In this document: in pieces, positions 5,808 to 6,941 of the stretch | How the letters are laid out: each line of letters begins with the position of its first letter | Numbering within the stretch: the first letter of the stretch is position 1 | Source of the DNA: a virus | Taxonomy: Duplodnaviria > Heunggongvirae > Uroviricota > Caudoviricetes | Virus record (IMG/VR): IMGVR_UViG_2880361019_000005 | Span: 1 to 8,335 of that record | Direction: 5' to 3' (one strand) | DNA length: 8,335 bases | Translations under genes and position numbers: made by a program | The notes under the pieces: generated by a model | Told to the model about the DNA's origin: nothing | The model's database searches: none | Seen by the model: the letters and a program-made list of their open reading frames with translations, nothing else

Positions 5808-6941
5808 TTAATAATTATAATACCCCATGCACAATGCCATCTGAGTCATCATATCCTGGTCTCTATCAATATTTATCTTGCCATCAGAAAAATCCAACAC
5901 AAAGAAATGATGAAATTTCGGCGGAACAACTTTAGAGTAAAAGCAGAAATACTCATTATTCCTTTCATATTGAAAATTAACGTATATTTTTTTAATTTTT
6001 TTATTTTCCACCAGGTCCATAAACATTTTATTTAAATCTGACCTTTTACTTTCCTTGTCATCATCTTGAAGCTTAGGATCAAAGTAACGTATTAAGCAGT
6101 TTTCAATAATTCTCCCCTCATTATCAACATCAATTTCATCCAGTAGAGAATTTGAAATATTAAAGACCACATTACATTTATTATTCAGAGATATAATCCT
6201 TGGATTAAATATACTAAAACAAACAAAAAAATCATTATCGTCATTTGAAACGCTATACAGCATCTTTGATAAGCCACGGTGAATAAAATCAACAGGGCGC
6301 CGATGCGGATGACGTGTATATCCTACGTAATGCACTTCTGTATGAATTCCTAAATCAATATAATGTCCGTTTACGAAATCATGAACTGACATCACACATA
6401 AATTGCCATTTTCATATTCAATGTAGAGAAACTTCTCAGTTACTCTAACATTTGGAGTTACCTTCACTACCCCATTCTGCGTAAACGTGCAAAAGGAATA
6501 TTTTATCCGAAGCTTTCGCTCTTCTTTGCCAATCAACAGAGTGAATACTATATTTTTTGTGAATGGGTTATACCTAGGCTGTTTCTTGGTTGAAAACCTC
6601 ACTTTTTTTCTTGAACCTAAGAAATAAATAAATCTCTTTTCACAGCTTTCCCTCGTATATTTTTCCATAATTCTGAGATAGTTCTTTATTATCTTATTTG
6701 TTCTTATATCATCAGGAGGATTAATTATCATATCATACCAAATACAATCGGTGTTAATGAGATCAATCCACAATGACTTATCGGCTTCTGAGAAAACCAC
6801 GTTAGAGTTTATAAAATCAAAGTTTCCGCGAGTCATAAAACACTTCATCACATTAAAAATCACCTGCACATAATAAATTAAGTAGCAGAAGGTTCGCAAA
6901 CCCTTGCTTCTGTTTGTGCTATGATATTTTTCATAATTCAT
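5808..6941 (-). CDS. Orphan hypothetical protein, 377 aa, strongly AT-rich; function unknown (candidate defence or effector cargo of the integrase-associated islet)
   Basis: Uninterrupted 1134-nt ORF (ATG 6941..6939, TAA 5810..5808) in the most AT-rich part of the window, co-oriented with and 158 bp downstream of the integrase. Lys/Asn/Ile/Phe/Tyr-rich composition typical of foreign low-GC genes. No signal peptide or transmembrane segment evident. Notable His/Arg-rich patch HTEVHYVGYTRHPHRRPVDFIHRG. Start codon is uncertain: in-frame ATGs also occur ~31 and ~35 codons downstream, and the SD is weak. Confidence 0.7.
   Translation of the reverse strand: MNYEKYHSTNRSKGLRTFCYLIYYVQVIFNVMKCFMTRGNFDFINSNVVFSEADKSLWIDLINTDCIWYDMIINPPDDIRTNKIIKNYLRIMEKYTRESCEKRFIYFLGSRKKVRFSTKKQPRYNPFTKNIVFTLLIGKEERKLRIKYSFCTFTQNGVVKVTPNVRVTEKFLYIEYENGNLCVMSVHDFVNGHYIDLGIHTEVHYVGYTRHPHRRPVDFIHRGLSKMLYSVSNDDNDFFVCFSIFNPRIISLNNKCNVVFNISNSLLDEIDVDNEGRIIENCLIRYFDPKLQDDDKESKRSDLNKMFMDLVENKKIKKIYVNFQYERNNEYFCFYSKVVPPKFHHFFVLDFSDGKINIDRDQDMMTQMALCMGYYNY

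Follow-up and report, generated by a model that had tools for sequence, protein, structure and literature searches.

The subject of this analysis is an AT-rich gene in a stretch of viral DNA of 8,335 nt (Caudoviricetes; IMG/VR record IMGVR_UViG_2880361019_000005, nt 1 – 8,335), referred to below as the window. The gene lies next to the integrase gene (int) of a prophage and most likely encodes an undescribed single-gene phage-defence nuclease. It occupies an open reading frame (ORF) of 377 codons, ATG to TAA, on the minus strand (nt 5808 – 6941). At the base composition of this ORF one stop is expected per ~12 codons, and the probability of an open run of 377 codons is 3.6e-15. The G+C content is 0.32, as against 0.44 in int and 0.56 in the tail module at the other end of the window. 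An earlier model-generated note made from the letters alone (the sequence-only reading) had described an AT-rich ORF of foreign composition, co-oriented with the 411-aa integrase and 158 bp beyond its stop, and had quoted the peptides RHPHRRPVDFIH, DDNDFF, DEIDVDNEG and LQDDDKESK. Coordinates, composition and distance all agree with that description, and the four peptides are all found in the 377-aa ORF.

Judging from the homologues, the first 35 codons of this ORF are probably untranslated. Nearly all homologues are 320 – 345 aa long and start with M-x-R-G-x-F, which corresponds to Met36 (MTRGNF) of the long ORF. The match to PHROG 7779 runs from ORF residue 36 to 377 and covers the profile completely (positions 1 – 342 of 342; E = 1.1e-246), and the RefSeq annotation gives a 342-aa product. 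The 35-codon extension is not conserved, holds the only hydrophobic stretch of the ORF and contains a promoter-like site (TTGCGA-18-TATTAT, nt 6899 – 6870) that was found by a promoter scan and is a match to the consensus only. Because of the homologue and PHROG starts, the RefSeq product and the position of this site, the true coding sequence is most likely nt 5808 – 6836, which brings the gap to int to 263 bp. The 342-aa protein is soluble, with an isoelectric point of 8.6 and no transmembrane segment, in agreement with the cytoplasmic-looking single protein seen by the sequence-only reading. Residue numbers below are those of the 342-aa protein (add 35 for the 377-aa ORF). The features from the gene to int are as follows.

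nt 5808 – 6836, minus strand: probable true coding sequence, 342 aa from Met36 plus stop codon (homologue and PHROG 7779 starts, RefSeq product)
nt 6837 – 6941, minus strand: in-frame 35-codon upstream extension, probably an untranslated leader/promoter with a sigma-70-like site (not conserved; consensus scan)
nt 6942 – 7099, minus strand: intergenic spacer following int, with which the variable cargo slot begins (~700 related prophages cease to be homologous here)
nt 7100 – 8335, minus strand: P4/IntS-type tyrosine integrase; its prophage is lambdoid, CPS-53-like and adjoins yjjG (domain matches, prophage comparison)

The central domain compared with GIY-YIG nucleases

The AT-rich gene encodes a real, conserved and never-named protein. 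Pfam, NCBIfam and PADLOC give no match for the 342-aa sequence, PHROGs places it in 7779 ('unknown function'), and nothing but noise came from the PDB sequences when they were searched with phmmer and with profiles. An identical protein occurs on at least 1000 public contigs, on every one of which it is a 'hypothetical protein' (UniProt A0A193M1C9), and literature searches by protein accession, by the phage PhiR63_1 (see below) and by PHROG identifier yielded no description of it; none of the searchable papers names the accessions.

An AlphaFold2 model built from a 40-sequence alignment (predicted local distance difference test 90.1; predicted template modelling score 0.88) divides the chain into an N-terminal part (residues ~1 – 150) of helices, a long hairpin and a beta-rich domain, an alpha/beta core (~146 – 260), and a small alpha/beta C-terminal domain (~281 – 336). 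The structure search returned GIY-YIG enzymes, among which T4 EndoII was the best match and I-TevI-type homing enzymes were also present, while HEPN proteins were absent among the matches. The remote-homology and structure check proposed by the sequence-only reading has thus brought out a GIY-YIG-like core, but neither a Pfam or PADLOC family nor a significant whole-chain Foldseek match against PDB and BFVD. The core has the order beta1 (HDF), inserted helix, beta2 (HYVGYT), Arg/His helix, long beta hairpin and Glu helix. Its motifs and the flanking domains map as follows.

nt 6594 – 6641, minus strand: conserved basic strip EKRFIYFLGSRKKVRF, residues 66 – 81, where the beta-rich N-terminal domain begins (Y71, R76 and R80 at least 92% conserved)
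nt 6057 – 6401, minus strand: divergent GIY-YIG-like catalytic core (predicted), residues ~146 – 260
nt 6279 – 6329, minus strand: motif YVGYTRHPHRRPVDFIH with Y170 (the YIG Tyr), G172, T174, P177, R180 (the equivalent, at +10, of I-TevI R27 and the EndoII Arg) and H186
nt 6066 – 6119, minus strand: Glu helix EGRIIENCLIRYFDPKLQ with E245 and Q257
nt 5829 – 5996, minus strand: C-terminal alpha/beta domain, residues 281 – 336, with conserved S301, H310 and F312

The basic strip (R76-K-K-x-R80) may contact nucleic acid, presumably DNA, and the C-terminal domain could be regulatory, sensing or involved in oligomerisation.

Residue-level comparison was made with the GIY-YIG sequences of the T4 GenBank record (I-TevI, I-TevII, SegA-C, SegE-G and EndoII). 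The I-TevI domain sequence was checked against PDB entries 1mk0 (E75A mutant) and 1ln0 (R27A mutant), and the EndoII entry, 2wsh, is an E118A mutant. A hidden Markov model (HMM) of the family was built from residues 140 – 275 of 125 members and searched with the HMMER filters off. Its segment 'nlgistevhyVGyTknpekrp' aligned to AIAINDELVYIGKTKNLRKRI of EndoII and likewise to the YVG...R motifs of UvrC and I-TevI, and in a second segment the Glu of the family 'EGxIIE' fell on the catalytic-Glu helix of UvrC. Out of 300 shuffled sequences, 299 were beaten by EndoII, 298 by I-TevI and 300 by UvrC, the UvrC sequence in both comparisons being an unverified one. SegA also beat its shuffles, but was discounted as support because its alignment is out of register. 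In the reverse test 46% of the 125 members scored above the shuffled 95th percentile and 22% above the 99th, and the best matches began at residues 160 – 200 in 66 of 118 cases. Profile-profile comparison (hhalign) of the family domain with a four-seed GIY-YIG alignment gave P = 2.4e-4 over 109 columns at a probability of 44%. An initial test of this kind with the nine T4 enzymes, a shallow set in which the Seg proteins lack the Arg helix, had given P = 0.047, and a database search from the four seeds gained little, as it yielded a redundant set with only 4 clusters at 70% identity.

The individual residues fall into place with the spacing of known enzymes. Y170-V-G172-x-T174 followed by R180 at +10 parallels Y17...R27 of I-TevI and Y47-I-G-K-T...R of EndoII, the 'YIG' Tyr and Gly aligning to YIGKT in EndoII and YVGSA in I-TevI. 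Further along, E245-NCLIRYFDPKL-Q257 parallels E118-PLFIKLFNPPW-N130 of EndoII, with the same +12 spacing, and E75-NFWIK of I-TevI, so that ENCLIR stands against EPLFIK and ENFWIK and E245 against the metal-binding Glu of both enzymes. Across the 125 members Y170 is conserved in 88%, V/I171 in 97%, G172 in 92%, T174 in 93%, P177 in 94%, R180 in 88%, H186 in 86%, D202 in 97%, E245 in 87%, Y251 in 95%, F252 in 96% and Q257 (as Gln) in 74%. The His/Arg-rich patch RHPHRRPVDFIH picked out by the sequence-only reading is the R180/H186 segment, and the acidic clusters it listed include D202, E240 and E245. The patch does prove to be the most conserved and probably catalytic part of the protein, but it lies in a beta-alpha GIY-YIG-like core and not in a HEPN domain.

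Four of six sequence and structure features of GIY-YIG domains are present, namely the fold (a small alpha/beta domain with a three-stranded antiparallel sheet and flanking helices), the 'YIG' Tyr/Gly, the catalytic Arg and the metal-binding Glu. The conserved Asn, usually 12 – 15 residues after the Glu, is ambiguous, as Q257 at +12 is a conservative replacement of EndoII N130. Two observations count against a GIY-YIG assignment. The PF01541 gathering score is not reached (the window protein has no match, and 1 of 40 members has a sub-threshold one at E = 0.012), and the 'GIY' strand lacks its Tyr, reading H152-D153-F154 with Phe in 80% of members, Leu in 10% and Tyr in 4%. Phe in place of the first Tyr may be tolerated, since the Y19F variant of CMoRE, a GIY-YIG restriction endonuclease, keeps substantial activity (PMC12923530). 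Further departures from the canonical domain are the helix between beta1 and beta2 and the long beta hairpin before the Glu helix. Taken together, the core is probably, although not proven to be, a highly divergent GIY-YIG-like nuclease domain.

Distribution of the family and its genomic setting

Full-length copies of the gene are present in 61 of 5,426 complete Escherichia coli genomes (~1%), and 52 of these copies are at least 99% identical to it. A 100%-identical copy is carried by Escherichia phage PhiR63_1 (host ECOR13), deposited as an isolated phage genome, which is the only one of 50,697 phage records to have the gene. All 13 copies in IMG/VR are of the E. coli allele and lie ~1.5 kb from where the viral contig or the fetched locus ends. 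Among 1.84 billion representative sequences, a profile search recovered only 216 relatives, of which the full-length ones are nearly all 290 – 360 aa (a few up to 415) and the rest are fragments. At one genome per species, homologues were found in 47 of ~185,000 species, mainly Gamma- and Betaproteobacteria and Campylobacterota, together with single metagenome-assembled genomes (MAGs) of Verrucomicrobia, Desulfobacterota and Acidobacteria. The sequence-only reading had taken the gene for an orphan that fits no family; it is indeed uncharacterised, but with PHROG 7779 and these homologues it is not an orphan. Conservation extends over the full length across phyla at 28 – 40% identity, and 40 members whose identity to the window protein is 31 – 82% share 20 residues without exception. 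The gene was compared with its flanks in ten hosts, and in every one its G+C content is 6 – 25 points lower; the family looks persistently mobile by horizontal transfer.

In E. coli the gene belongs to a prophage. The integrase is of P4/IntS type, as the sequence-only reading had it, because it consists of Arm-DNA-bind_3, Phage_int_M and Phage_integrase domains. The carrier, which that reading had likened to an island with a payload, is instead a CPS-53/KpLE1-like lambdoid prophage and not a P4 satellite or island, and the gene sits in a variable slot adjacent to int. Both PhiR63_1 and strain 06-00048 have the order yjjG, int, cargo gene, (121-aa gene), yfdR, yfdQ, yfdP, cI, cro and replication genes. 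DNA of the integrase at 90% identity or more is found in 700 of the 5,426 genomes (~13%), and in most rows sampled homology ends within ~30 bp of the int stop (matches end at query positions 129 – 191, the stop being at 159).

What occupies the slot was surveyed in nine further breakpoint classes at this site of the chromosome (sister loci L014 – L022). Enterotoxigenic E. coli H10407 has Dsr1, an O111:H8 strain a dGTPase (PADLOC, 8e-105) and strain 58-3 an anti-phage dCTP deaminase (PADLOC, 1e-163). Other occupants are an 868-aa HNH_2+dsrm protein (L022:2272-4878), a DUF4365+TPR protein that matches the PADLOC candidate PDC-M02A (L021:2899-4839), and unrelated hypothetical proteins of 331 aa in NU14 (L017:5622-6617), 515 aa in O157:H7 146N4 (L018:3326-4873) and 160 plus 81 aa in an O145 strain (L020:3932-4701). 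One sampled slot is degenerate. The NU14 protein was tested as a relative of the family and is unrelated to it. By analogy with known hotspots, the slot shows a defence-hotspot pattern. Defence hotspots have reportedly been described for P2/P4 elements. The main text of the Hochhauser hotspot paper does not mention yjjG, and no description of the yjjG-site slot as a defence hotspot was found. As a separate observation, the unnamed slot genes (331-aa, 515-aa, 160+81-aa, DUF4365+TPR and HNH_2+dsrm) may be further defence candidates.

Homologues in other taxa also lie beside defence genes. In Robbsia the gene is found between BrxR+BilA-D and two reverse-transcriptase (RVT_1) genes, and in Klebsiella variicola it is flanked by HsdRMS and a ScoMcrA-SBD+HNH protein. 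The Salmonella homologue adjoins a C5-methyltransferase/DUF4928/Vsr module on a TraC-bearing element, that of Proteus an ABC-3C (CTD6+MC2) module in an smpB-adjacent island, and that of a Pseudomonadales MAG adjoins CcdAB and a PIN protein. Neighbourhoods in Arcobacter, Budviciaceae, Psychrobium and one metagenomic contig are nondescript. A bulk scan of the 138 nearest ORFs at loci of 35 species gave strong PADLOC matches to Shango SngA/SngC, Hachiman HamA/HamB (down to 1e-258), TRIP13 and SAVED-HNH (CBASS parts), AbiEii, DitA, PDC-S05 and type IV restriction endonucleases, an enrichment that is qualitative because the scan gives per-family counts with no matched control. The survey of homologue neighbourhoods suggested by the sequence-only reading thus found defence systems, and no recurrent partner among the 138 ORFs: any one Pfam family occurs at most 3 times, the families being guaA/guaB-type housekeeping proteins and GNAT acetyltransferases. 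The small 121-aa gene that follows the ORF in PhiR63_1 was rejected as a partner, as it has no family matches, does not accompany the homologues of other taxa and has given way to other sequence in strain MMC-J-0091. With no recurrent partner and with defence systems as neighbours, the gene behaves as a stand-alone unit travelling in defence neighbourhoods. Its slot-mates (Dsr1, dCTP deaminase, dGTPase) and its neighbours elsewhere (Bil, restriction-modification, ABC-3C, Hachiman, Shango, CBASS and AbiE) place it in defence islands or at a hotspot, and lend strong contextual support to the single-gene anti-phage function that the sequence-only reading had offered as one option.

Two local arrangements were seen in passing. 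In Arcobacter (L005:5859-8960) the homologue is the last gene in a tight co-oriented run after a Band_7/SPFH protein and 140-aa and 250-aa unknowns, a possible lineage-specific operon seen in no other taxon. In about three species (loci L029 – L075) the nearest neighbours are of guaA/guaB type (GATase + GMP_synt_C + NAD_synthase; IMPDH + CBS), so that the vicinity of the gua operon may be a recurrent site of insertion.

Proposed mode of action and rival explanations

The protein is proposed, at a probability of roughly 0.6, to be a stand-alone, cytoplasmic, prophage-carried anti-phage DNA endonuclease. It would be expressed in the lysogen from the gene's own promoter. The catalytic centre would be the central, very divergent GIY-YIG domain, in which Y170, R180, H186 and E245 (the single metal ligand) would bring about metal-dependent DNA cleavage, with Q257 replacing the usual Asn and with the first 'GIY' Tyr mostly changed to Phe after His-Asp. 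The beta-rich N-terminal domain, with its invariant basic strip, and the small C-terminal domain may serve in the choice of target or in restraint (auto-inhibition) of the nuclease. Having no methyltransferase or other partner, the enzyme would cut the DNA of a superinfecting phage and spare that of the host and the prophage. Most likely it would tell them apart by some feature peculiar to foreign DNA, for example a base modification or a structure formed at replication or injection. The gene, its conservation, the likeness of fold and motifs to GIY-YIG, the lack of a partner gene and the defence setting are shown; nuclease activity, DNA as target, a protective phenotype and this manner of sparing self are what we infer here.

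Modification- or structure-dependent recognition is the leading guess by analogy with CMoRE/PD-T4-3, a single-gene type IV restriction endonuclease of the GIY-YIG class with a separate sensor domain (PDB 9u75; PMC12923530). CMoRE has a GIYxY-YIG motif and consists of an N-terminal nuclease and a C-terminal domain that senses 5-hydroxymethylcytosine (5hmC) (PMC12923530). The candidate is akin to it as a stand-alone restriction nuclease but is not a member of its family: PADLOC, which includes PD-T4-3, gives no match at E <= 10, and motif and architecture differ, the core of the candidate being central, its first Tyr a Phe and its flanking domains unrelated. T4 EndoII (DenA; PDB 2wsh) is a single-domain protein of 136 aa, a lytic phage enzyme that attacks the cytosine-containing DNA of the host, whereas the candidate has 342 aa and three domains, resides in prophages and islands and carries Gln where EndoII has Asn. 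With the GIY-YIG superfamily as a whole (PF01541; I-TevI, UvrC, Cho, YhbQ, Eco29kI, Hpy188I) it shares the beta-beta-alpha topology of the core, and Tyr, Arg (+10), His and Glu follow one another in the same order at the same distances, but it differs in being sub-threshold in Pfam, in having H-D-F for the GIY Tyr, and in its extra helix and long hairpin insertion. Dsr1, the dCTP deaminase and the dGTPase, each one large gene, have the same integrase, site and position, but the proteins are unrelated, and they act by depletion of NAD+ and deoxynucleotides as against the DNA cleavage proposed here. Two further classes were rejected. An orphan of a type II restriction-modification system (Eco29kI-like) does not fit, since there is no cognate methylase: none recurs among the 138 nearest neighbours, and the only methyltransferase of the E. 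coli prophage is a distant, Dam-like phage enzyme. Homing endonucleases have DNA-binding tails of NUMOD/IENR type that were not matched, and END nucleases are a different family (PLD plus inactive EndoIII).

The main rival, to which we would give perhaps one chance in a handful, is an abortive-infection toxin, in which the same nuclease is auto-inhibited in the lysogen, is freed by a phage protein or another cue of infection, and degrades host and phage DNA alike so that the cell dies before progeny are released. A single gene without a modification partner or a recognisable modification-reader domain would suit such a toxin, the extra N- and C-terminal domains could be a sensor or an inhibitor, the conserved acidic stretches are reminiscent of a loop, likewise acidic, through which CMoRE inhibits itself (PMC12923530), and toxin-antitoxin and abortive-infection modules are neighbours in some genomes. 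The conserved acidic residues D202, E240 and E245, however, are inside the catalytic core and not in a separate loop; the present data do not distinguish the toxin from direct targeting. That the nuclease instead serves the phage, by selfish homing, in recombination or repair, or by degrading host DNA in the lytic cycle like T4 EndoII, is improbable. EndoII and the I-TevI-type homing enzymes among the structural matches, and the copy in PhiR63_1, would speak for such a role, but it is made less likely by the near absence of the family from phage genomes, where it is known from one phage record and, in IMG/VR, only from the allele of the E. coli prophage, located where that prophage ends. The majority of homologues belong to chromosomal islands, with defence systems alongside, and not to phages, and the slot is next to int and not in the replication or recombination module.

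It is quite improbable that the ORF is a non-functional relic, conserved in sequence but with a decayed nuclease site and no present role. The catalytic residues do deviate from the canonical ones (Tyr to Phe, Asn to Gln) and the surrounding prophage in the window is decaying, but against this stand the full-length conservation and invariant residues described above, the 52 intact, nearly identical copies in complete E. coli genomes, and the intact state of the gene in the window itself, where J and lom are frameshifted. A secreted effector of a type III secretion system (T3SS), the other option of the sequence-only reading, or a HEPN-type ribonuclease is the least credible of all. An NleG effector gene is present in the window, as that reading had noticed and a Pfam match bears out, but it comes from a different phage fragment joined by IS1, and the N-terminus of the candidate is conserved and confidently folded. 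No injectisome is known from some hosts of the family, for example Arcobacter and Psychrobium. R180-x5-H186 does satisfy the HEPN pattern Rx4-6H, but HEPN ribonucleases are four-helix bundles, and here the pattern is predicted to lie in a strand-loop-helix of an alpha/beta domain.

The candidate is regarded as an uncharacterised GIY-YIG-like family, invisible to profiles and with new accessory domains, and as a candidate new defence system. If confirmed, it would be a new family among the few one-protein nuclease defences, scattered by horizontal transfer over Proteobacteria and Campylobacterota. Profile-based defence annotation would miss it, because the core is too divergent for the profiles of Pfam, NCBIfam and PADLOC 2.0. 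The flanking domains could then bring to light a new means of discrimination between phage and self DNA, of interest for enzyme tools as CMoRE is for the detection of 5hmC, and the variable lambdoid slot could be mined for further systems. A bolder version, for which the odds appear a little short of even, would make the gene the founding member of an undescribed single-gene system, in which a GIY-YIG domain with a re-wired site (first Tyr replaced by Phe and Asn by Gln) is joined to two sensor domains in a combination not seen before (one a beta domain, DUF971-like, that bears the basic strip, the other the small C-terminal domain) that read a new signature of foreign DNA. The same version would make the int-adjacent slot at yjjG a rich lambdoid defence hotspot, with its other unnamed occupants as further new systems.

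IS1 and the tail module of the window

Just past the cargo gene the prophage is truncated by a complete IS1, which cuts the small downstream gene at nt ~5511 – 5513 and on its other side abuts a fragment of the J gene. It thereby joins int and the cargo gene, both intact, to a decaying tail module with a truncated and frameshifted J, a frameshifted lom and a split tail-fibre gene, followed by NleG. The remaining features of the window are listed below.

nt 5514 – 5717, minus strand: 5' part of the small 121-aa hypothetical gene, cut by IS1
nt 4746 – 5513, minus strand: IS1, complete, 768 bp, InsA/InsB
nt 3270 – 4759: C-terminal J remnant, cut at its N-terminal side by IS1 and in two frames (Ig_J/Ig_J_second, 4250 – 4759; Phage_Tail_Tip/Ig_GpJ_C, 3270 – 4262)
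nt 2581 – 3202: lom, split by a frameshift (Ail_Lom positions 1 – 161 within 2657 – 3202; positions 161 – 199, with the terminal GVGYKF, in another frame at 2581 – 2736)
nt 936 – 2522: tail-fibre region, apparently broken or duplicated (phage_tail_N, 1800 – 2522; collagen repeats and Phage_fiber_C, overlapping in another frame, 1207 – 1923; a second Phage_fiber_C, 936 – 1337)
nt 1 – 651: NleG-family T3SS effector gene at the far end of the tail module (Pfam, 4.8e-48; G+C 0.36)

NleG genes are typical moron cargo of lambdoid prophages in enterohaemorrhagic and enteropathogenic E. coli, and this one is unrelated to the cargo gene next to int. The junction of J', IS1 and the ORF seen in the window is present in no complete E. 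coli genome of the collection, and the rearrangement that formed it, whether a deletion or a recombination between prophages, is therefore rare. An independent IS1 was found in E. coli MMC-J-0091 (L028:6331-8102), right at the 3' terminus of the cargo gene, whose product in that strain is annotated with 339 aa; the AT-rich cargo may be a preferred target of IS1.

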